Virus genome (UHGV): UHGV-1355725
Source: a virus
Length of the DNA: 44,514 nt
Strand: one strand, 5' to 3'
Both the position numbers and the translations under genes were made by a program. The notes under the pieces were generated by a model that was given only the letters and a program-made list of their open reading frames with translations, did no database searches and had not been told where the DNA came from. Of the stretch, positions 8,656 to 40,565 are shown piece after piece. Each line of letters opens with the position of its first letter. The first letter of the stretch is position 1.

Positions 8656-8687
8656 TTGCGCACCCCAATATAATAGGGTACTATTCA
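8656..8687 (+). promoter_or_regulatory. class-1 promoter with embedded inverted-repeat operator
   Basis: TTGCGC (8656-8661), 17-bp spacer, TACTAT (8679-8684); inverted repeat AATAG-GGTA-CTATT at 8672-8685; followed by RBS AAGGAG and ATG 8715. Confidence 0.5.
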
Positions 8688-8714
8688 CTCACACCGACAA
8701 TGAAGGAGTTTAAA

Positions 8715-17688: not shown

Positions 17689-17720
17689 TTGCAGACACCA
17701 ATATAATAGGGTACTATTCA
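17689..17720 (+). promoter_or_regulatory. class-1 promoter with embedded inverted-repeat operator
   Basis: TTGCAG (17689-17694), 17-bp spacer, TACTAT (17712-17717); inverted repeat AATAG-GGTA-CTATT 17705-17718; RBS AGGAGG and ATG 17745 follow. Confidence 0.5.
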
Positions 17721-17744
17721 GTTAACTTAAACAGGAGGCGATAT

Positions 17745-20448: not shown

Positions 20449-20481
20449 TTTGCAGACACCAATATAATAGGGTACTATTCA
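20449..20481 (+). promoter_or_regulatory. class-1 promoter with embedded inverted-repeat operator
   Basis: TTGCAG (20449-20454), 17-bp spacer, TACTAT (20473-20478); inverted repeat AATAG-GGTA-CTATT 20466-20479; 40-nt block identical to the copy at 17689. Confidence 0.5.
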
Positions 20482-20506
20482 GTTAACTTAAACAGGGGGG
20501 TTAAAA

Positions 20507-30028: not shown

Positions 30029-30210
30029 TTCGCCCCTTTGAATTTAAAATTGTTGCCGATGAGTTCTATGTCTTTCGCGTACAGGAAACCGTAGTGGATT
30101 CCATTTTTCACCTTAACGAGGTCGTACATTTCTAAGTACCACTCTACGAAGTAAAAATCCCTCGTTCCTTTAACTTTAACCAACTGACCTTTCTTAAACA
30201 TAACCCTCAC
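30025..30210 (-). CDS. hypothetical protein (first gene after promoter)
   Basis: 61-aa ORF directly downstream of the class-1 promoter at 30232-30264. Confidence 0.35.
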   Translation of the reverse strand: MRVMFKKGQLVKVKGTRDFYFVEWYLEMYDLVKVKNGIHYGFLYAKDIELIGNNFKFKGAK

Positions 30211-30231
30211 TCCTCTGTCTCGTTTCGATAA

Positions 30232-30264
30232 GTGAATAGTAACCTATTATGTTGGGGTGTGCAA
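30232..30264 (-). promoter_or_regulatory. class-1 promoter with embedded inverted-repeat operator (minus strand)
   Basis: Minus strand TTGCAC (rc of 30259-30264), 17-bp spacer, TACTAT (rc of 30236-30241); inverted repeat AATAG-TAAC-CTATT 30235-30248. Confidence 0.5.
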
Positions 30265-30306
30265 GAGAATAGTTACGTTGCCGTTGTGATTCTTTCGTTT
30301 CTTAAA

Positions 30307-30362
30307 AGAGTACGCAACGCAGTGGGTGGGCGTCAGCCCACCCCAGCGGAGTGAAGTACTCT
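30307..30362. repeat. nested inverted repeat / structured element in the early intergenic region
   Basis: Outer arms AGAGTAC (30307-30313) and GTACTCT (30356-30362) enclose the hairpin GGGTGGGC-gtca-GCCCACCC (30324-30343). Confidence 0.6.
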
Positions 30363-30639
30363 CTACCTTGCCCACGGCAACTATAGAAACTTTTAATTAT
30401 CAGGTACTTAAGAGATATGCCGCCGGTGTGAATAGAGCTTGCCCAGGGCAACCGGAGATACTAAGGAAGGAAAGTTACGATAATTCATTTGTTCAGTAAT
30501 CTGCCGCTTAACACTTCGCTTGCGCTGGTGCGCCGCTGCGTTTCAAGCGGGTATTACAAGGTGAACAGGAATCAAAGTAACTAAGATATATAAGCACCTT
30601 AAACGAAGATTTTCATAATGTCAATAGGTACGATTATGT

Positions 30640-30668
30640 TTGATTTCCCATTATTCGCAATGTATACT
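30640..30668 (+). promoter_or_regulatory. sigma70-type promoter for the rightward early operon
   Basis: TTGATT (30640-30645), 17-bp spacer, TATACT (30663-30668); ATG 30701 follows. Confidence 0.45.
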
Positions 30669-30700
30669 CAGTTTCGTTAACTGATAATGAGGGTTTGAGA

Positions 30701-30853
30701 ATGGTTACTTTGACAGAAGAGCGGTTGAAAGAGTTGCTGGTAGAAGCGTGGTTTAACGGACATAACGAGCGCAGATACTGCCCCAATAAATACGGCACAG
30801 CTACAGCGTTTGCGCGGGAAACAATTAAGGAGATTAAAGATGACACAGAATGA
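30701..30853 (+). CDS. small hypothetical protein
   Basis: 50-aa ORF with RBS GAGGG; first ORF of the rightward operon. Confidence 0.35.
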   Translation: MVTLTEERLKELLVEAWFNGHNERRYCPNKYGTATAFARETIKEIKDDTE

Positions 30854-31010
30854 AGTAGCTGAGCGTATCGGGGTTACTCGCCGCACGCTGAATAACTGGT
30901 TAAAGAGTGGGAAGTTCCCGGATTGTTGTATTCGCATTATGGGCCGTCGGCAGCCAGGTACGTTTGACCCGGAGAAAGTGGAAGCGTGGATTAAGGAGAA
31001 TGTAAAATGA
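30840..31010 (+). CDS. small HTH DNA-binding protein
   Basis: 56 aa, MTQNEVAERIGVTRRTLNNWLKSGKFP HTH-like. Confidence 0.45.
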   Translation: MTQNEVAERIGVTRRTLNNWLKSGKFPDCCIRIMGRRQPGTFDPEKVEAWIKENVK

Positions 31011-31240
31011 CCGAGTTCCAGTCACGTGTATTTACGGCAGTCGTTTCGTTAACACGTAAAAAAGGTTCGTGCAGCGTTATTGACTTGCGCCGTAGTTATT
31101 TTAAGTACTATAGTTCCGCCATTATTGAAGGGTCGTTGAAGGTGCTGGTTAAATCTGGTGTCGTGAAAAACACTGGCGGGAAATATAGCGCAGTTGCCGA
31201 AGTTCGCGGAATGGCAGCCACTTTAGAAGACCTGGAATAA
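31007..31240 (+). CDS. hypothetical protein
   Basis: 77-aa ORF. Confidence 0.4.
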   Translation: MTEFQSRVFTAVVSLTRKKGSCSVIDLRRSYFKYYSSAIIEGSLKVLVKSGVVKNTGGKYSAVAEVRGMAATLEDLE

Positions 31241-31297: not shown

Positions 31298-33565
31298 ATG
31301 TCCGATGTAATTTTATCCTACTCGTGGTCACGTCGCAACGCGCGGGCAGAGAAAAAGGATATAAACGTCAGAACTACACACACAGCAACACTGGACGACC
31401 TGAAAGAGTTAATTCAGCCGCTAGATGCCGTTCGCGACGTGGTTAACCCTAAGACCGCGCCTGGCTATATCACCGCCGCGTGTGACTCTACGCACAGCAC
31501 CGTAAAAGACCCGGAAACCGGCGACTTTAAGCAAGCGCGTAAAGGCTTCTTCTATCGCTGCGATGCGTCTGTAAGCAAATCGTCGCTGGCGTACCTGGAC
31601 TTCGACAGCGCAACGCCGGAAGAGTATCAGGAAGCAGTGCGCCTGGTTAAGCGCAGCCGCCCGGCCATGTGTCTCTATACCACGGCATCGCATACCGACG
31701 AGTCCCCTCGCTTTCGCGTCGTCATGCCGCTTGCCCGTCCTGTTGAGGGTGGTGACATCATCCGTGTTCGTCATGGGATGCTGGAGCACTTCTTCAAAGG
31801 CATGGGCGCGGACCGTAGCGGGTTCACTCTGTCACAGCCAATGTACCTGCCGCCAGTTGGCTCTCAGGTTATCTGGTCGCGCCGCAACGACCTGATTGAC
31901 CCGGATGAGTTACTGGAAGGTATACCAGCCATTGACGTTAGCAGCGCATCGGATTACCAGATACCGGAAGAACTGCGCACCGCGTTTACGGATGCGTTTG
32001 AAGCACTGGCGTTTGAGTACGGCGGTATCATGACGCCACGCGGCCTTAAGATGCCAGCTACACCGGAACATGCAGAGAACTACAGCGACCCGACGCCGCG
32101 ACCGGACGACTTCCTGCTGTGTTTCCCGCGTGAGGGATATGAAGCGCCTAACGTAACCATGATTCACGACACCGACATTACGGCAACCGAAGGCATGTCA
32201 CCGAAGGAGGTGTGGAAGTATGCGTGCGACGCGACCGGGCTGCCGTTCAGTGAAGTCGCTGAGGCAATCGGCTGGGGCGCGCGTGAATCTGTTTCATGCA
32301 GCCTGGACGACCTGGAAGACGAGGATGACTCAGAGGAGGACGAGTTACCAGAACCGGTAAAGGCTGATTTCGTCGTCGAAGGGTACATGCCGTCCGATTG
32401 CATCTGGGATATTGTCGGGGAATCTGGCACGTACAAGTCGTTCTATACGCTGGGGATGATGTACCTCAGCGCCGCCGGATACCGGTTTGCCGGGGCGGAT
32501 ACCCAGCGTTGCCACCACTTCTATATCGACGGTGAGGGTGGCGCAGCCACACGTACACGTATTGACGCGCTCGCGGCTAAATACGGCGCAGAGGGTAAAG
32601 ATTATGTACACGTCATCGACATGGGAGAAGTCGGCAAACTTAAAAATCTGATTAAGTTAATGCGCGAAACCGCCGGCGACGAGCCAATTGGTATGGTCGC
32701 GTTCGACACCCTTAACCAGACCCTGGCACTGACGATTGATAAGTTCGACGAGAACAGTTCATCGACGGCAATCGGTATGGGTAAAATCATCGCCATCCTG
32801 AAAGAAGTACGCGACGCAACTAAAGCCGCGGTTGGCGTTGTCCACCATACGCCGAAGGGCGGGAAGAAAGCCCGTGGCAGCGGGGCACTGTATGCAGGTG
32901 TCGACGTGGAACTGACAATCGAACGCGCTACCGACCGCCAGATAAACGTATACCACTCTAAATTTAAGCACGGACCTCAACAGAAGACGGTTGGCATGGT
33001 GCTGGAGTCGGTACAGTTCCGTGAAGCCCCTCCGCCGAAAGAATACCGTGCGGTTGAGTTCATTGGTGACACAGAGGAATACGGCACCATCGTAAACCTC
33101 GACCTGCCGGAACCGCACAAGGCGCTTGTGTTGATGCCGTGGGGCTTCGAGCCGTTCAAAACTGACGAGGAGAAAGAGAGGGAAGAAGGGCTGACGAAAG
33201 AAGGTAAAGAAAACGTACGTAAAACCGTAGAGAATGCCGTCAATAGTTCAGAAGCCACGATACTGGCTGCGTTTGAACTGGCGGAAGGAACCTACAACGG
33301 CAACGAAGGTATCACGGCAGCAGCGGCAAATAAGCTAGCGCAGTCGGACCCCAACTCAAAGGCGTTTAACTCCAAAGAAGCCATAGAGCGTGGGAAGATT
33401 AAGAAAATGGTTGAGGCCGGGTATCTTGTACCTGGAACAGATGAAAACAATCAGATAATCCCGGGCCGTTACAGACTGAACACCCGAATAACGGATAACA
33501 AGATTCCGAAGACAATATACGAACAGAATGAAATGTTGACCGTGACAGAGGAGGATTTGGAATGA
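31298..33565 (+). CDS. primase-helicase-type replication protein (N-terminal primase-like region, C-terminal RecA-like ATPase)
   Basis: 755 aa; RBS GAAGGA; Walker A GESGTYKSF and Walker B-like MVAFDT in the C-terminal half. Confidence 0.6.
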   Translation: MSDVILSYSWSRRNARAEKKDINVRTTHTATLDDLKELIQPLDAVRDVVNPKTAPGYITAACDSTHSTVKDPETGDFKQARKGFFYRCDASVSKSSLAYLDFDSATPEEYQEAVRLVKRSRPAMCLYTTASHTDESPRFRVVMPLARPVEGGDIIRVRHGMLEHFFKGMGADRSGFTLSQPMYLPPVGSQVIWSRRNDLIDPDELLEGIPAIDVSSASDYQIPEELRTAFTDAFEALAFEYGGIMTPRGLKMPATPEHAENYSDPTPRPDDFLLCFPREGYEAPNVTMIHDTDITATEGMSPKEVWKYACDATGLPFSEVAEAIGWGARESVSCSLDDLEDEDDSEEDELPEPVKADFVVEGYMPSDCIWDIVGESGTYKSFYTLGMMYLSAAGYRFAGADTQRCHHFYIDGEGGAATRTRIDALAAKYGAEGKDYVHVIDMGEVGKLKNLIKLMRETAGDEPIGMVAFDTLNQTLALTIDKFDENSSSTAIGMGKIIAILKEVRDATKAAVGVVHHTPKGGKKARGSGALYAGVDVELTIERATDRQINVYHSKFKHGPQQKTVGMVLESVQFREAPPPKEYRAVEFIGDTEEYGTIVNLDLPEPHKALVLMPWGFEPFKTDEEKEREEGLTKEGKENVRKTVENAVNSSEATILAAFELAEGTYNGNEGITAAAANKLAQSDPNSKAFNSKEAIERGKIKKMVEAGYLVPGTDENNQIIPGRYRLNTRITDNKIPKTIYEQNEMLTVTEEDLE

Positions 33566-35037: not shown

Positions 35038-35291
35038 ATTGGATTAGCGTAAACGAAGAATTACCAGAGTCAAAAGATGATTCTGTTTTAGTTTGCTCAG
35101 TAGATGGCAGTAAATATGACGATAACGGATTCCCGGAAGGTGGAGTTGATTTTGTACATATACAGGACTATTTCGACGACATTACTGCTTGGTTGGATGA
35201 AAACGGAAATCAGTTATATACGAAACGGTATGTAGAGATGGGTATAACGCACTGGATGTATTTACCGGAACTACCAGAGGACGTTAAATAA
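35034..35291 (+). CDS. DUF551-like phage protein
   Basis: MNWISVNEELPES...W...YLPELPE pattern; ATG overlaps the upstream stop. Confidence 0.45.
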   Translation: MNWISVNEELPESKDDSVLVCSVDGSKYDDNGFPEGGVDFVHIQDYFDDITAWLDENGNQLYTKRYVEMGITHWMYLPELPEDVK

Positions 35292-36541
35292 TGATTCTTA
35301 AAGAACGTGGTGGCAACAACGATGTACACGCCTTACTGTCGCCGTCTGGCGCTAAAAAGTGGCTAAGCTGTGCGGCGTCACTGGCCTGTGAAAAAGATAT
35401 TCCTAACACGTCCGGTAAAGCTGCGGTATTGGGCACCGCTATGCACACCATAGCGGAGATGCACCTTAACCAGTACATAAAAGGTACTGCGTTACCGTTA
35501 GAGCGTGAAGTCGGTGCTTACGTGCTGGACGAGGGTAAAGGCCAGATTAAGGCGCTAATTAGCCCGATGAAAGGCGCGGTACTGATTACGGCTGACATGA
35601 TTGAGCAGGTGCGCAAGTACACCGACTACTGCAAAGCTGTTATCGATGTAGCGACTTACGCCAAACTCGAGATGCGTGTCAATCTTACTGAGGTATTGCA
35701 TCCAGGGTATGAGGGCGTTGAGACGTTCGGAACCGCTGACCTTGTTGCAGTTCAGGAACTGGCTAACACCGACGAACACATGCTCATTATTGGCGACCTG
35801 AAAACAGGACGACATCGTGTCGAAGCGAAAGAAAACAAACAGCTTATGCTATACGCTCTCGGTGTTTATCGCCGCCTCAAGAGACGCTATAACATCACCC
35901 TTGTTCGTCTGGTTATCTTCCAGCCGTACGCCGAGGGCGCGTCGGAGTGGGACATCTCGGTTGAAGGTCTGGAGCTGTTCGCTAAGTTCGCACAGAAACG
36001 TGCACTGTTAGCGCTTGATGCCTATTCCCGCGGCAAGAAGAACCTGAAAGCGTCTGACTTCAAGCCGTCTGTCGATGGTTGTCAGTGGTGCCGGTTCTCT
36101 GAACAATGCACCGCGCGTACAAAAACCGTTAACTCTGTACTGGCGGAAGAACTGGAGGACGACTTTGCACTGGAACTTACGCCAGAGCAACTCGTAGCTG
36201 AGTATGAGAAGTTGCCGTTGCTGCTCCAGCATATCGACAAGGTCGAGAAAGCTATGGCGGCCGCGTTGCATTCCGGTAAGAAAGTTCCGGGGTACAAGTT
36301 GGTTGAAGGCCGTCCTGGTAATCGTGCGTGGAAAGACGCCGATGCGATTGAAGTGTCACACGGCGACATTCTGAAAAAAGAGGTATTGATGTCCCCTACG
36401 GAGGCAGCAAAAGTTCTTTCGGCGGATGAGATGGCAGCGCTTGAGCCGTTTATTACCCGTAAGCCAGGAGCGCCATGTGTCGCAACGGCGGACGACAAAC
36501 GGCCTGAGTGGCATAAGGTTAGCGAAGAAGATTTAGAATAA
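35291..36541 (+). CDS. PD-(D/E)xK exonuclease, Cas4/RecB-like with Fe-S cysteines
   Basis: 416 aa; motifs GTADLVAV, IIGDLKTG, QLMLYALG; cysteine cluster CAASLAC ... CQWCRFSEQC. Confidence 0.7.
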   Translation: MILKERGGNNDVHALLSPSGAKKWLSCAASLACEKDIPNTSGKAAVLGTAMHTIAEMHLNQYIKGTALPLEREVGAYVLDEGKGQIKALISPMKGAVLITADMIEQVRKYTDYCKAVIDVATYAKLEMRVNLTEVLHPGYEGVETFGTADLVAVQELANTDEHMLIIGDLKTGRHRVEAKENKQLMLYALGVYRRLKRRYNITLVRLVIFQPYAEGASEWDISVEGLELFAKFAQKRALLALDAYSRGKKNLKASDFKPSVDGCQWCRFSEQCTARTKTVNSVLAEELEDDFALELTPEQLVAEYEKLPLLLQHIDKVEKAMAAALHSGKKVPGYKLVEGRPGNRAWKDADAIEVSHGDILKKEVLMSPTEAAKVLSADEMAALEPFITRKPGAPCVATADDKRPEWHKVSEEDLE

Positions 36542-36628: not shown

Positions 36629-37255
36629 ATGGGTATTAAACTGAATCTGCGTAAAGTAAACACTGCATGGGTTAACGTATTCGAACGCGAAAAAGACCGT
36701 GAAAACGATGATGGCTCAATCACTAAAGGCCAGTACAGCGCGACTATCATCCTGCCGTCTGACCATGCTCAAATCGACGCGCTCTACGATACCGTTTACG
36801 CTGTAGTTGAAGAAGCGTTGGGCGCAGCCGCCGCCGAGAAGTGGATGAAGTCCAACTACGGCGAAGGTAAGCACATGGATAAATGCGCTATTAAAGACAT
36901 CGCCGAACGCGACAATCCTTTTGAAGACTTCCCGGAAGGCTTTTACTTCAAAGCGAAGGCACAGAAACAGCCACTGATTGTAACCTCTAAAAAAGGTGAG
37001 ACTCAGGTAGAGCAGGACTTCAACGTAGACGGAGAACAGATTGAAGGTGAACAGGTTTACAGTGGCTGCGTCGCTAACGTAAGCGTCGAAATCTGGTTCA
37101 GCCAGAAATATAAAGTTCTCGGTGTTAACCTGCTGGCGATTAAATACGTTGGTGAGGGTAAAGCGTTCGGTGGTTCTAAAGTCGCTGCAAGTGTCAATGA
37201 CCTGGAAGACGACGAAGAAGATGAAGCACCGCGCCGCGAACGTCGCCGCCGTTAA
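36629..37255 (+). CDS. ssDNA-binding protein (T7 gp2.5-like)
   Basis: 208 aa; overall resemblance to gp2.5-type SSB with acidic C-terminal region DLEDDEEDE; sits between exonuclease and polymerase. Confidence 0.5.
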   Translation: MGIKLNLRKVNTAWVNVFEREKDRENDDGSITKGQYSATIILPSDHAQIDALYDTVYAVVEEALGAAAAEKWMKSNYGEGKHMDKCAIKDIAERDNPFEDFPEGFYFKAKAQKQPLIVTSKKGETQVEQDFNVDGEQIEGEQVYSGCVANVSVEIWFSQKYKVLGVNLLAIKYVGEGKAFGGSKVAASVNDLEDDEEDEAPRRERRRR

Positions 37256-37298: not shown

Positions 37299-37466
37299 CT
37301 AAGGGTCGAAAATCATGTTTTTCTGTAAGCACGTATACCGATATATGAAACCGCTTCCGTGGTACGCGGATGAGTACCGCGCCGGGTACAGGCATGTGTG
37401 GATTTGCCGTGATTGTATGAAAATAAGACTCAGCGAAACGAAGGCAATGGATTTAAGGAAAAAGAA

Positions 37467-40400
37467 ATGAGCTACTTATACCTGGACTTTGAAACATTCT
37501 CCGAAGCCGATTTAAAGAAAGTCGGCTCCTACGCTTACGCCGAACACCCGTCAACCGAAGTTCTTATCTGTACATACGCTTTTGACGACGAGCCTGTACA
37601 GGTATGGGACTGCACAGACGGCAGCGACATGCCTGGGGATTTGCACCGCGCACTACGCCGTCTGGTGAAACCAAACAGCCGCATTAAGATGGTGTGGCAT
37701 AACGGCTCAATGTTCGATCGCCTCATCATGAAACACTGCTGGGGCTTTGATATTCCGGTAAGTAACACCATTGATACGATGATTTGGGCGTTTCGTCACG
37801 CGCTGCCGGGTTCACTTGACGCATTGTGTGAAGTGCTGGGCGTGTCCGCAGATAACGCGAAAGACAAACGTGGCAAGGCGCTGATTCAGCGTTTCTCTAA
37901 ACCTACACCGAAGAACTACAAAATCCGCCGCTACACCGCCGAAACACACCCGGACGAGTGGGCGCTGTTCATCAAGTACGCCGTGAGTGACATCACTGCG
38001 ATGCGCGAAGTATTCCATAAGCTGCCTCGTTGGGGTAACTCAGAGTTTGAAGACCGTGTACTGGAACTGGACCAGTTAATTAACGACCGCGGGTTTAAGG
38101 TTGACGTCGCACTGGCGGAAGCCGCGATCGAAGCCGTGGAGAAGCACAAGACACAGTTACAGGAAGAAGCCCAACGCAAATACGGCGGCTCGCTTACTGG
38201 TAAAGACTTCCTCCCTATTCTGCGTGAACTCGCCCCAGCGCACCGCATCCACAATGCGCAGAAGTCTACGCTGAATGACCTGCTGGCAGACGACGATTTA
38301 CCGGACGACGCCCGCGCGATTATAGAAATGCGCCTCGGGGCCGCGTCCACCGCGTCAACGAAATATAACCCATTGCTATTAGGCCGCTCATCGGACGACC
38401 GTCGCCGCGGTTGTTTACAGTACGGCGGGGCAAAACGTACCCTGCGATGGGCGGGTAAAGGCTTCCAGCCGCAGAACCTGGCGCGCGGTTACTATCACGA
38501 TGATGAACTGGATAAAGGCATTTCTGCGCTACTTAAGGGCCGTGCGCATCGCCGTTTTGATGTAGCCAAGCTAACGGCATCGACGGTGCGTAGCTGCATC
38601 ATACCGGAAGCCGGATATAAGTTTGTCGTCGCCGATTACTCTAACGTTGAAGGCCGCGGGCTTGCGTGGCTGGCGGGCGAAGAAACCGCGCTTGATACGT
38701 TCCGCGCCGGACTGGATATTTACTGTGTAACCGCAGGTAAGATGTTCGGCATGGACCCCGACGATATTAAGAAAGAACGTAAAGACTTGCGCCAGATTGG
38801 TAAAGCGTGCCTTCACCGTCATACCCTAGTTTTGACCGATGGCGGATTTAAGGATATTATGGCGGTTACATCAACAGATAAAGTATGGAGCGGTGAAAAA
38901 TGGGTGAATACAAAAGGCGCGCACCTTATGGGGTGGAAACCGGTAATAAATGTGGACGGGGTGCTAATGACCGAAGACCACAAAATCTTGGCGCATTCCT
39001 GGAAGCAGGCAAAGCAACTCGCTTCAAACAGATATATGATGGGCCTCGCCCTGGAGAGAGGTATGGACGCCTGGTTATCCTGCGCGAGTTACCAAAACGA
39101 CAAGGCCAAAGACAACTACTCGTCCAATGTGATTGCGGAGAGATGCCGTGGCGGGTCTATTACGACAATGTCAGAGCGGGTAAAACCACTCAATGCAACC
39201 GCTGCGCCCTTGAAGCAACAAAAAAATATCGTAAACAGTATTTCTGCTACGAAGACGCAATGCCGGATGATGCGCACAGAACAAGATTACTCAACCGGCT
39301 GTCCGCGGCGATCACGCGAACAACAAGCCCCAGGAATAAGGGTTATAAAAACTATGGTGCCAGGGGCATCACGGTATTCGACCAGTGGAGGACTGATAAA
39401 AGGTCGTTTCTTGGATATGTTCAAACTCTGGAAGGCTGGGACGACCCAAACCTCGAAATGGATAGAATCGACACAGACGGTAACTACGAACCTGGAAACA
39501 TTCGGTTTGTCAGCCGTTCTGAAAACTGCCGAAACAGACGGCAAATACCCGAGCTTCAACGAAAGTATGATGCAGCCGTTGCCCGCATTGCTGAACTTGA
39601 ACGGGAAATTAGCCTATTGCGAGCCGGTGTACGACCTGATTGATGTGGAAGACGGCAACCGTTTTCTTATAGCCTCAGACTCTGGCTTTCTTGTGGCGCA
39701 TAACTGCGAGCTTGGCCTCGGCTATGAGGGGGGTGTCGGTGCTTTCGTTACGTTTGCTAAAAACTTAGGTCTTGACCTTATCGAGATGGCAAAAACAATG
39801 GACGGTACTTTCCCGGGCCACATATGGGCAGCTACCGCACGCGGTTATGAGTGGGCGCGTATCCAGGAAGCAAAGCGACCGCCGCAGCCCGGCGAAAAGG
39901 ACGACCGACCGTCGTATATTTTGGACAAGAAAGTGTGGCGCACATGCGACGCGATCAAGCGTATGTGGCGCGAGTCACACCCGGAAACAGTAGCGTTCTG
40001 GCGCGACCTTAAAGACGGAATTTTAGCCGCTGTGCGTAATCCAGGTCGTGAATTTTGGGCGGGGGCACACTTGCGCAGGAATGGGGAAAGGGCAATCCGC
40101 ATATGGCGTACTGTAGAATTTGATTCATCCGGTAGGAAGGTTCCTGGTTGGTGGTTATGCATGGAGTTGCCGTCAGGCCGCATCCTCTCGTATCCGGGAA
40201 TCGGCGTTAGTGTGACAAAGGAAACAGACGAAGACGGACGGGTAAACACGAATGTGCGAATCAAGTATCAGGGGGAAAACCAGTTAACCCGCCAATGGAC
40301 CACCCTGTACACACACGGCGGCAAGGCCTGCGAAAACATTGTTCAGGCGCTGTGCCGCGATTTACTTGCCTATGCGATGATTAACGTTGAGGGTGGTGGG

Positions 40401-40565
40401 TATCCCATCGTGCTTTCTGTACACGATGAATTGGTATGCGAAACTCCAGATACGCAGGAATACAACGTGGCTGAACTGGAAAAATTAATGTGCGCGTTGC
40501 CGGAATGGGCAGAAGGCTTCCCTCTTGTAGCGGAAGGTGCGGAGATGAAGCGTTATGCTAAGTAA
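37467..40565 (+). CDS. family A DNA polymerase with 3'-5' exonuclease domain, interrupted by an intein
   Basis: Exo motif YLDFETFS, motif A VVADYSNVEGRGLAWL, motif C VLSVHDELV; ATG 37467 with RBS AAGGAA; a 299-aa insertion splits motif B (RQIGKA / CELGLGYEGG). Confidence 0.85.
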   Translation: MSYLYLDFETFSEADLKKVGSYAYAEHPSTEVLICTYAFDDEPVQVWDCTDGSDMPGDLHRALRRLVKPNSRIKMVWHNGSMFDRLIMKHCWGFDIPVSNTIDTMIWAFRHALPGSLDALCEVLGVSADNAKDKRGKALIQRFSKPTPKNYKIRRYTAETHPDEWALFIKYAVSDITAMREVFHKLPRWGNSEFEDRVLELDQLINDRGFKVDVALAEAAIEAVEKHKTQLQEEAQRKYGGSLTGKDFLPILRELAPAHRIHNAQKSTLNDLLADDDLPDDARAIIEMRLGAASTASTKYNPLLLGRSSDDRRRGCLQYGGAKRTLRWAGKGFQPQNLARGYYHDDELDKGISALLKGRAHRRFDVAKLTASTVRSCIIPEAGYKFVVADYSNVEGRGLAWLAGEETALDTFRAGLDIYCVTAGKMFGMDPDDIKKERKDLRQIGKACLHRHTLVLTDGGFKDIMAVTSTDKVWSGEKWVNTKGAHLMGWKPVINVDGVLMTEDHKILAHSWKQAKQLASNRYMMGLALERGMDAWLSCASYQNDKAKDNYSSNVIAERCRGGSITTMSERVKPLNATAAPLKQQKNIVNSISATKTQCRMMRTEQDYSTGCPRRSREQQAPGIRVIKTMVPGASRYSTSGGLIKGRFLDMFKLWKAGTTQTSKWIESTQTVTTNLETFGLSAVLKTAETDGKYPSFNESMMQPLPALLNLNGKLAYCEPVYDLIDVEDGNRFLIASDSGFLVAHNCELGLGYEGGVGAFVTFAKNLGLDLIEMAKTMDGTFPGHIWAATARGYEWARIQEAKRPPQPGEKDDRPSYILDKKVWRTCDAIKRMWRESHPETVAFWRDLKDGILAAVRNPGREFWAGAHLRRNGERAIRIWRTVEFDSSGRKVPGWWLCMELPSGRILSYPGIGVSVTKETDEDGRVNTNVRIKYQGENQLTRQWTTLYTHGGKACENIVQALCRDLLAYAMINVEGGGYPIVLSVHDELVCETPDTQEYNVAELEKLMCALPEWAEGFPLVAEGAEMKRYAK
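38808..39704 (+). mobile_element. intein in the DNA polymerase
   Basis: Begins CLHRHTLVLTDGG, block-B-like GVLMTEDHKILAHSW, ends VYDLIDVEDGNRFLIASDSGFLVAHN followed by extein Cys; the central part of the host frame is open but compositionally non-protein-like. Confidence 0.65.
38900..39643 (+). CDS. HNH-family endonuclease encoded in an alternative frame inside the polymerase intein
   Basis: Codon phase offset by one nucleotide from the polymerase; motifs RYGRLVILREL, CDCGEMPWRVYYDNVRAGKTTQCNRC, YKNYGARGITV, IDTDGNYEPGNIRFVSRSENCRNR; ATG 38900 preceded by GGAG/GGTGA; exact start uncertain. Confidence 0.6.
   Translation: MGEYKRRAPYGVETGNKCGRGANDRRPQNLGAFLEAGKATRFKQIYDGPRPGERYGRLVILRELPKRQGQRQLLVQCDCGEMPWRVYYDNVRAGKTTQCNRCALEATKKYRKQYFCYEDAMPDDAHRTRLLNRLSAAITRTTSPRNKGYKNYGARGITVFDQWRTDKRSFLGYVQTLEGWDDPNLEMDRIDTDGNYEPGNIRFVSRSENCRNRRQIPELQRKYDAAVARIAELEREISLLRAGVRPD

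Follow-up and report, generated by a model that had tools for sequence, protein, structure and literature searches.

Sequence comparisons indicate that the segment separating the two divergent early promoters of the analysed virus genome (UHGV-1355725; the whole analysed stretch of 44,514 nt is referred to as the window) is a real, conserved, and functional non-coding control region of Guernseyvirinae phages. The same comparisons indicate that a long hairpin of this segment, designated here hairpin 2, is a selected feature, the base pairs of which are maintained by compensatory substitutions. The conservation of the segment, its covarying structure, the strand bias of its wobble pairs, and its promoter- and terminator-like signals lead us to infer a leftward RNA. 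We propose, tentatively and with slightly less than even confidence, that the segment (hereinafter the gap) is a leftward-transcribed structured RNA, either a discrete molecule of ~270 nt or the leader of the early-left operon.

A region of 521 bases around the gap matched 449 phage records, which represent Kagunavirus and Jerseyvirus. The identity of this region is ~95% to Escherichia phages BEU35 and fEg-Eco06, and ~80% to K1ind1 and other Kagunavirus phages, while its right part is ~70% identical in Salmonella Jerseyvirus phages. Based on these identities, the window is the genome of a Kagunavirus-like (Guernseyvirinae) siphophage. Its structural genes occupy the minus strand up to ~24 kb, the run of small minus-strand ORFs stops at 30210, and the plus-strand replication module starts from 30701. 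The ~375 bp between the leftward promoter (30264->30232) and the rightward promoter (30640-30668) contain no conserved ORF. All ORFs of the gap are short (57 aa or less) and none is conserved among relatives, in which the annotation of this region is inconsistent, with differing ORFs or none. Additionally, the lengths of the indels in the conserved parts of the gap are not divisible by three, which is at odds with a coding gene. The reading of the gap as a small-ORF locus was dropped because the ORFs of up to 57 aa are unconserved and the length of the hairpin varies by non-multiples of three.

An earlier note, made from the sequence alone, had described 30265-30700 as an ORF-poor gap between divergent promoters, with a nested inverted repeat at 30307-30362 and further short palindromes. 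Our analysis bears out this description: the sequence is as it was given, with short unconserved ORFs only, and both the nested repeat and the palindromes, TTGCCCACGGCAA (30368-80) and TTGCCCAGGGCAA (30439-51), are present. The rightward promoter that the note placed at 30640-30668 was recovered by a promoter scan as TTGATT-17-TATACT, and the leftward class-1 promoter that it placed at 30232-30264 is a repeated element, the 33-mer of which recurs at 8656 within 3 mismatches. The features of the gap, from left to right, are as follows:

30232-30264, minus strand: P_L, the leftward class-1 promoter (-35 TTGCAC at 30264-30259, 17-nt spacer, -10 TACTAT at 30241-30236)
30266-30400, unstranded: module A, which contains the nested hairpin 1
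30266-30295, unstranded: left part of module A with the conserved AATAGTTACGTTGCCGTTGTGATTCTT, nearly invariant in the alignments
30307-30362, minus strand: hairpin 1 (the nested inverted repeat), a candidate terminator or attenuator before P_L
30396-30472, unstranded: sequence-conserved stretch with CAG(A/G/T)TACTTAAG, the palindrome TTGCCCAGGGCAA (30439-51), GAGATACT, and AAGGAAGGAA
30473-30582, minus strand: hairpin 2, a long imperfect hairpin of five helices and ~110 nt, the largest structure of the gap
30473-78/30577-82, minus strand: helix P1 of hairpin 2
30481-86/30569-74, minus strand: helix P2 of hairpin 2
30490-95/30562-67, minus strand: helix P3 of hairpin 2
listed between P3 and P4, minus strand: invariant 4-nt bulge CCUU of hairpin 2
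30496-500/30553-57, minus strand: helix P4 of hairpin 2
30504-14/30540-50, minus strand: helix P5 of hairpin 2, plus a variable tip
30596-30624, minus strand: P_L2, a candidate leftward sigma-70 promoter (-35 TTGACA at 30624-30619, 17-nt spacer, -10 TAAGGT at 30601-30596)
30640-30668, plus strand: P_R, the rightward early promoter (TTGATT-17-TATACT), found by the promoter scan and invariant in relatives

P_L heads the early operon of small ORFs, the first gene of which starts with the ATG at 30202. Besides the recurrence of the 33-mer at 8656, copies related to P_L are located around 17696 and 20457, and this recurrence, together with the related copies, identifies the class-1 promoter as a real repeated element. 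The promoter-like element of ~33 nt (TTGCRSACMCCAAYATAATAGGKTACTATTCAS) occurs in four copies, at 8656-8688 (+), ~17689-17721 (+), ~20450-20482 (+), and 30232-30264 (-), three of which head small plus-strand gene islands within the minus-strand structural region. In Jerseyvirus phage Kenya-K5, two P_L-like promoters are present in tandem. P_R heads a 50-aa ORF (30701-30853), the HTH_17 gene (30840-31010), the gene of a 77-aa winged-helix protein (31007-31240), and the helicase-primase gene (31298-33565). The 50-aa ORF represents phrog_20928; of the aligned loci, only those of the window, EF2-1, and ZCEC5 carry it, and in the others the P_R leader is immediately followed by the HTH gene. In gene-level data from an RNA-seq time course of infection with Kagunavirus K1B4, the HTH gene is reported as early (PMC12645636).

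Alignments of the gap, which covered 14 Kagunavirus and 8 Jerseyvirus/K1H loci, revealed its modular structure, with P_L and P_R kept in every aligned Kagunavirus and Jerseyvirus relative. The sequence of module B (30396-30640) is 60-80% identical across Kagunavirus and Jerseyvirus, which is comparable to or higher than the identity of the helicase-primase coding sequence, for which this comparison gave 48-66%. The folding of the whole gap gave z = -4.8 for the minus strand vs. -3.0 for the plus strand. A search of the whole window against Rfam at gathering thresholds gave no match, and a permissive Rfam search of 30100-30800 gave only a chance-level hit to ctRNA_p42d (E = 1.7). No tRNA or tmRNA was found, and we found no description of the gap element in the literature. 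In Jerseyviruses, the intergenic region may reach ~970 bp, and an extra conserved module with a hairpin or palindrome GCGCTTGCCGTAAGGCAAGTGC is located between P_L and module A or B.

The five-helix minus-strand fold of hairpin 2 is common to all 32 of its distinct versions (z from -3.0 to -8.6), which are 98, 99, 101, 104, 105, 108, or 110 nt long, and in at least 12 base pairs both partners change while pairing persists. Helices P1-P4 were also recovered by RNAalifold from a structure-blind MAFFT alignment, in which pair types are distributed as CG:19/UA:13, AU:19/GU:11/GC:2, and GC:22/AU:8/UA:2. When only the Kagunavirus sequences were considered, 95.4% of cells were standard pairs, vs. 30-40% with the pairing partners slid; five pairs (33 cells) changed on both sides, and the covariation score was reached by none of 500 shuffles. 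Between the two genera, the sequences of P2 (TGATTC/GAATTA vs. AAGTTT/AAACTT) and P3 (TGTTCA/TGAACA vs. GTTTCA/TGAAAC) differ, the latter in a compensatory manner. Compensatory changes between genera concern also P4, which occurs as GTAAT/ATTAC, GTAAA/TTTAC, GTAAG/CTTAC, and GTGAG/CTCAC. The tip helix, P5, is represented by at least seven different sequences, every one of which pairs.

A covariance model, R1, built on Kagunavirus sequences, detected the Jerseyvirus copies at ~30 bits, with a single hit in each genome, and found no second copy of hairpin 2 anywhere in the window. Pattern scans of viral and metagenome sequences retrieved Guernseyvirinae-type contigs only, plus three chance hits. 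In cassettes of the K1H and L052 types (see below), the same long hairpin was not seen. Global RNAalifold analysis of the plus strand of module B gave a weak fold (-8 kcal/mol) and no covariation outside hairpin 2. The adjoining stretch, 30396-30472, contains many columns that are invariant across 38 sequences and no covariation-supported base pairs; its AGATACT motif is shared by the divergent cassette of the K1H type.

The distribution of wobble pairs in hairpin 2 favours the minus strand as the one that would be transcribed and folded, on the basis of few independent G.U positions. Kagunavirus sequences, read on the minus strand, contain 20 G.U cells but not a single A.C cell, and one G.U is present in 17 of 19 sequences; likewise, P4 has a G.U in most Jerseyviruses, which would read A.C on the plus strand. 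In the window, hairpin 2 folds with -41.3 kcal/mol on the minus strand vs. -32.9 kcal/mol on the plus strand, and a promoter/terminator pair comparable to that of the minus strand was not found on the plus strand. Hairpin 2 is almost all Watson-Crick, with 1-2 G.U among ~37 pairs, and in Jerseyviruses its two strands fold about equally well, although the minimum-energy fold of the plus strand departs there from the conserved architecture. The near-total Watson-Crick pairing and the equal folding of Jerseyvirus strands leave room for a role at the DNA level or on two strands.

A sequence probably representing a third promoter of the gap, P_L2, precedes hairpin 2 by 13 nt on the minus strand, and the transcription start predicted for it, near 30589, is ~7 nt before the hairpin. 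The hexamers of P_L2 are invariant across Kagunavirus and Jerseyvirus, while the sequence of the spacer drifts. A site of this type is kept in all four types of exchangeable cassettes described below (T1-T4). The spacer is 17 nt long in all but one of the T1/T2 sequences and 16 nt long in T3, values of 16-18 nt being usual for sigma-70 promoters. The K1H-type cassette (T3) has TTGACA-16-TAAAAT in the same place, with an 11/12 match and a call by the promoter scan, and shares little other sequence; the L052-type cassette (T4) has TTGACT-17-TAAGCT. In the window, the -35 of P_L2 matches in 6/6 positions and the -10, TAAGGT, in only 3/6, and the scan gives no call. In phage K1H, at 1897-1945 of the analysed locus, the rightward -35 TTGTCA overlaps the leftward -35 TTGACA on the opposite strand. 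Such an overlap would make the binding of polymerase mutually exclusive and thus might serve as a built-in switch.

At the other end of the gap, hairpin 1 consists of an inner GC-rich stem, GGGTGGGC/GCCCACCC (30324-30331/30336-30343), and an outer stem, AGAGTAC/GTACTCT (30307-30313/30356-30362), and on the minus strand it is followed by UUUUAAG. The 90 nt around hairpin 1 fold with -38.1 kcal/mol on the plus strand (z = -4.8; none of 200 shuffles was as good) and with z = -3.4 on the minus strand. Two sequence versions of hairpin 1 have the same nested structure and are linked by compensatory changes. The version of the window type has GGGTGGGC/GCCCACCC inside AGAGTAC/GTACTCT, and that of the K1ind1/Jersey type has GGGCAGGC/GCCTGCCC, or the variant GGGCAGGT/ACCTGCCC, inside GTAAC/GTTAC. 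Hairpin 1 passes the minus-strand terminator scan in most relatives; in the K1ind1/Jersey type it does so with 9 pairs, including 7 GC, and the tail TTTAGTTA, and shows the GC-rich stem, the loop of 3-8 nt, and the adjoining U-run of an intrinsic terminator. In the window, the scan calls no terminator at hairpin 1; on the minus strand, a U-run is missing after the inner stem, and UUUU follows the outer stem only. Module A is wholly absent from some Jerseyviruses, so a discrete 3' end of the proposed RNA would not be universal.

Other features of module A concern its repeats and an insertion. The sequence GTTGCCGT (30277-30284) is the inverted partner of ACGGCAAC at 30374-30381, and the two inverted copies of ACGGCAAC, 30277-30284 (-) and 30374-30381 (+), flank the nested hairpin. 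Among the 8-mers of the window, ACGGCAAC is the most frequent (23 copies vs. ~1.4 expected for a random 8-mer), and all 9 of its copies within 1-17 kb are on the minus strand. Its abundance may partly reflect codon bias, as other GC-rich 8-mers reach 15-17 copies. In phage BEU33, module A contains a 53-nt insertion, CCTGCCCGCGCCGCGGTCGCTTGTTCATACTTCACAAGCTCAGGTGGAGCTTA (about 1100-1152 of the analysed locus), which resembles a segment of module B of the L052 type (loci L050, L052, and L055) and possibly represents a small segment that is mobile or arose by recombination.

The leftward RNA that we tentatively propose would originate as follows. Host RNA polymerase would start at P_L2 (30624->30596), back-to-back with P_R, and the RNA, ~7 nt after its start, would fold into the ~110-nt hairpin 2 (30582->30473). 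The transcript would then cross a sequence-conserved stretch of 75 nt and reach the GC-rich hairpin 1 (30362->30307), a putative terminator or attenuator that immediately precedes P_L. This would yield a discrete RNA of ~270 nt or, in phages with a weak or missing terminator, a long and structured leader of the early-left operon. Possibly, its functional part is the RNA of hairpin 2, which might act in cis or in trans as a processing or stability site, an antitermination element, or a protein-binding RNA. A search for targets in trans by duplex folding over the genome gave uninformative energies. The transcription of the gap, the ends of the RNA, and its function are all inferred from sequence.

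Several well-known systems resemble this arrangement in part. The putL and putR antitermination RNAs of phage HK022 are ~70 nt long, form two stem-loops just after the promoter start, and make RNA polymerase resistant to terminators. As in the case of put, a structured RNA would follow the start of an early promoter and precede terminators and an early operon, acting in cis without a dedicated ORF. The position of hairpin 2, ~7 nt after the predicted start, fits that of a put site, but its architecture does not, as it is a single five-helix hairpin of ~110 nt and not two stem-loops of ~70 nt. In the pR'-6S RNA-tR' unit of phage lambda, a promoter also makes a short, structured, and terminated transcript directly before an operon. 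Lambda, however, depends for read-through on the Q protein, bound to DNA within the promoter, and its downstream operon lacks a separate promoter. In the window, the operon that follows is headed by P_L, and no gene resembling Q was identified. Hairpins cleaved by RNase III, such as those in the T7 early mRNA and the lambda N leader, are likewise long and imperfect, with internal loops, and lie in non-coding stretches of early transcripts; such sites need roughly 20 bp, and hairpin 2, with ~37 base pairs, is well above this length. However, the T7 sites are shorter (~50-60 nt) and are located between genes, while hairpin 2 is at the predicted 5' end of a transcript.

The earlier note had seen in the gap either a replication origin or a regulatory RNA, had pointed to the nested repeat, and had called for fold and covariance analyses across related phages. 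The poor conservation that would speak against its claim is clearly not seen (449 matching records), and the fold and covariance analysis reveals two hairpins kept by compensatory changes. The RNA half of the claim gains from this conservation, from the two covarying hairpins, and from the promoter-like and terminator-like signals of the same strand. The origin half gains no positive evidence of the classical kind: there are no iterons, tandem repeats, or cluster of DnaA boxes, and the only AT-rich stretch coincides with the back-to-back promoters. The best-supported structure is the ~110-nt hairpin farther right, which the note overlooked.

An unconventional origin is an unlikely explanation, yet one to be weighed seriously, and in part it could coexist with the leftward RNA. 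A hairpin of single-stranded DNA would act as an initiation or primase-loading signal, or transcripts from P_L2 and P_R would activate or prime replication, with specificity provided by the adjacent small DNA-binding proteins. The location of the gap directly upstream of the replication operon is consistent with it, as is the fact that covariation of the hairpin cannot tell RNA from single-stranded DNA. It also draws on the joint exchange of module B, the HTH gene, and the small-protein gene as a single block next to a 90-100% identical helicase-primase gene, on the predicted winged helix and disordered acidic tail of the 77-aa protein, and on the ..EDLE end common to this protein, the helicase-primase, and the exonuclease. 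The minimum of cumulative GC skew is near 30 kb, and 30575-30675 has 26-34% GC. However, the GC-skew switch coincides with the gene-orientation switch, so the skew is not independent evidence of an origin, and the AT-rich stretch consists simply of two back-to-back promoters; a separate AT-rich unwinding element was not found. A search for iterons (at least three direct repeats of ~17-22 bp) or tandem repeats revealed only short, mostly two-copy repeats of up to 25 nt, 70-500 nt apart. DnaA-like sites are not enriched (61 in the window vs. 70 expected) and form no cluster in the gap.

Two iteron candidates were rejected. A P4-type iteron, GGTGAACA at 30560, which is the reverse complement of TGTTCACC, is present in a single copy, is not enriched, and constitutes one arm of helix P3. 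AGTTAC-like words occur in three copies (p ~0.007), two of which are the arms of P1, and this explanation of the repeats argues against the origin as well.

Plasmid single-strand initiation signals are strand-specific conserved hairpins of 60-120 nt, and ColE1-type origins are RNA-primed. Their likeness to the gap consists in a hairpin or structured transcript that adjoins replication genes. The gap differs in that iterons and DnaA boxes are absent and in that the candidate promoter directly upstream suggests RNA. The latter feature, a candidate promoter immediately upstream of the hairpin on the wobble-bearing strand, makes RNA a simpler fit than an origin.

The exchange of cassettes bears on both the origin and the operator explanation. 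In Kagunaviruses with a helicase-primase 92-98% identical to that of the window, the region from ~30400 to ~31240 (module B and P_R, followed by HTH_17 and the small gene after it) occurs in several alternative forms, while module A, P_L, and helicase-primase stay 90-100% identical. The small protein of the K1H type (91 aa) is a distant homologue of the 77-aa protein of the window. In the L052 type, the gene of the latter is replaced by an unrelated 96-aa ORF, the product of which has no acidic tail, a point against the origin. The linkage within cassettes could reflect specific recognition between protein and nucleic acid, be it an origin or an operator, or mere recombination at conserved flanks.

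The replication operon encodes HTH_17, the winged-helix protein, helicase-primase, exonuclease, a Gp2.5-like SSB, and DNA polymerase. The recognition helix of the HTH protein is identical in Kagunavirus and Jerseyvirus. The model of the 77-aa protein (pLDDT 83) comprises a winged helix and a disordered acidic tail, and a fold search gave only generic winged-helix matches (the N-terminal domain of MotA, the DNA-binding domain of LexA, and RPA32C), all with E > 0.001. These matches of a predicted structure fit replication and transcription roles alike and do not decide between them. This protein belongs to a very narrow family: among 1.84 billion proteins, 4 representatives were found, and one of these is a spurious repeat protein. 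An acidic end is common to the 77-aa protein (..ATLEDLE; 31007-31240), helicase-primase (..VTEEDLE; 31298-33565), and exonuclease (..VSEEDLE; 35291-36541), and the K1H-type allele of the small protein ends with ..HDLE. The Gp2.5-like SSB (36629-37255) has NDLEDDEEDE near its end. By analogy, the shared acidic tail looks like a docking peptide, reminiscent of the acidic tails of T7 gp4 and gp2.5, and the ..EDLE end suggests that the 77-aa protein may be tied to the replisome network. Within the DNA polymerase ORF (37413-40565, 1050 aa), residues 483-855 form an endonuclease-like segment (phrog_93) that separates two parts matching polymerases; this segment might represent an intein or the insertion of a homing endonuclease.

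In an elaboration that we regard as improbable, the hairpin RNA, the promoter, and the HTH_17 and winged-helix genes would form an exchangeable specificity cassette that starts a T7-like replisome. The winged-helix protein would recognise the origin signal, either the structured leftward transcript or its DNA template strand, and would recruit the replisome through its ..EDLE tail. If this were true, the cassette would represent a new type of phage origin, in which iterons are replaced by a structured RNA or a single-stranded hairpin.

A serious though, in our assessment, quite unlikely alternative is that the gap is protein-binding regulatory DNA, in which the words and palindromes GCCCNNGGCA, AGATACT, and AATGTCAATAGGT would be operators for the HTH_17 and/or winged-helix protein. 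The balance of P_R, P_L2, and P_L would then be set like in a Cro/repressor switch, and symmetric sites would have given rise to the inverted repeat as a by-product. The linkage of module B in cassettes with two DNA-binding protein genes, the many invariant columns outside the supported helices, the overlap of the -35 hexamers of P_R and P_L2 in K1H, which would make them mutually exclusive, and the early expression of the HTH gene (PMC12645636) agree with operators. Operators leave unexplained, however, the ~37 covarying or maintained pairs over 110 nt, the variable loop length, and the replaceable tip; the HTH recognition helix is identical in both genera while helices P2-P5 differ, and the cassette linkage may reflect only recombination at conserved flanks. 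In the case of 30396-30472, operators and the leftward RNA can coexist.

A plus-strand hairpin RNA, or sense and antisense mirror hairpins controlling the replication operon in the manner of CopA/CopT or RNA I/RNA II, is very improbable: hairpin 2 is nearly all Watson-Crick on both strands, the Jerseyvirus plus strand folds as well as the minus strand, and an invariant GATACT is located 11 nt before the plus-strand start of the hairpin, but this GATACT has no convincing conserved -35, the scan calls no plus-strand promoter upstream of hairpin 2 in the window, wobble favours the minus strand (20 G.U vs. 0 A.C cells), and the Jerseyvirus minimum-energy fold of the plus strand lacks the conserved architecture.

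The gap is a candidate for a new RNA family, considering the clear covariation of hairpin 2. Phages of Kagunavirus and Jerseyvirus are a frequent target of isolation and sequencing for therapy and biocontrol and are being adopted as small model and engineering chassis. Their early control region is undescribed in the literature that we found and is filled by annotators with inconsistent hypothetical ORFs. Hairpin 2, together with the probable third promoter and the terminator-like hairpin, provides a concrete and testable map of early transcription in these phages. In engineered genomes, the gap should be neither deleted nor recoded. If the element were tied to replication initiation, it would represent a new kind of phage origin.
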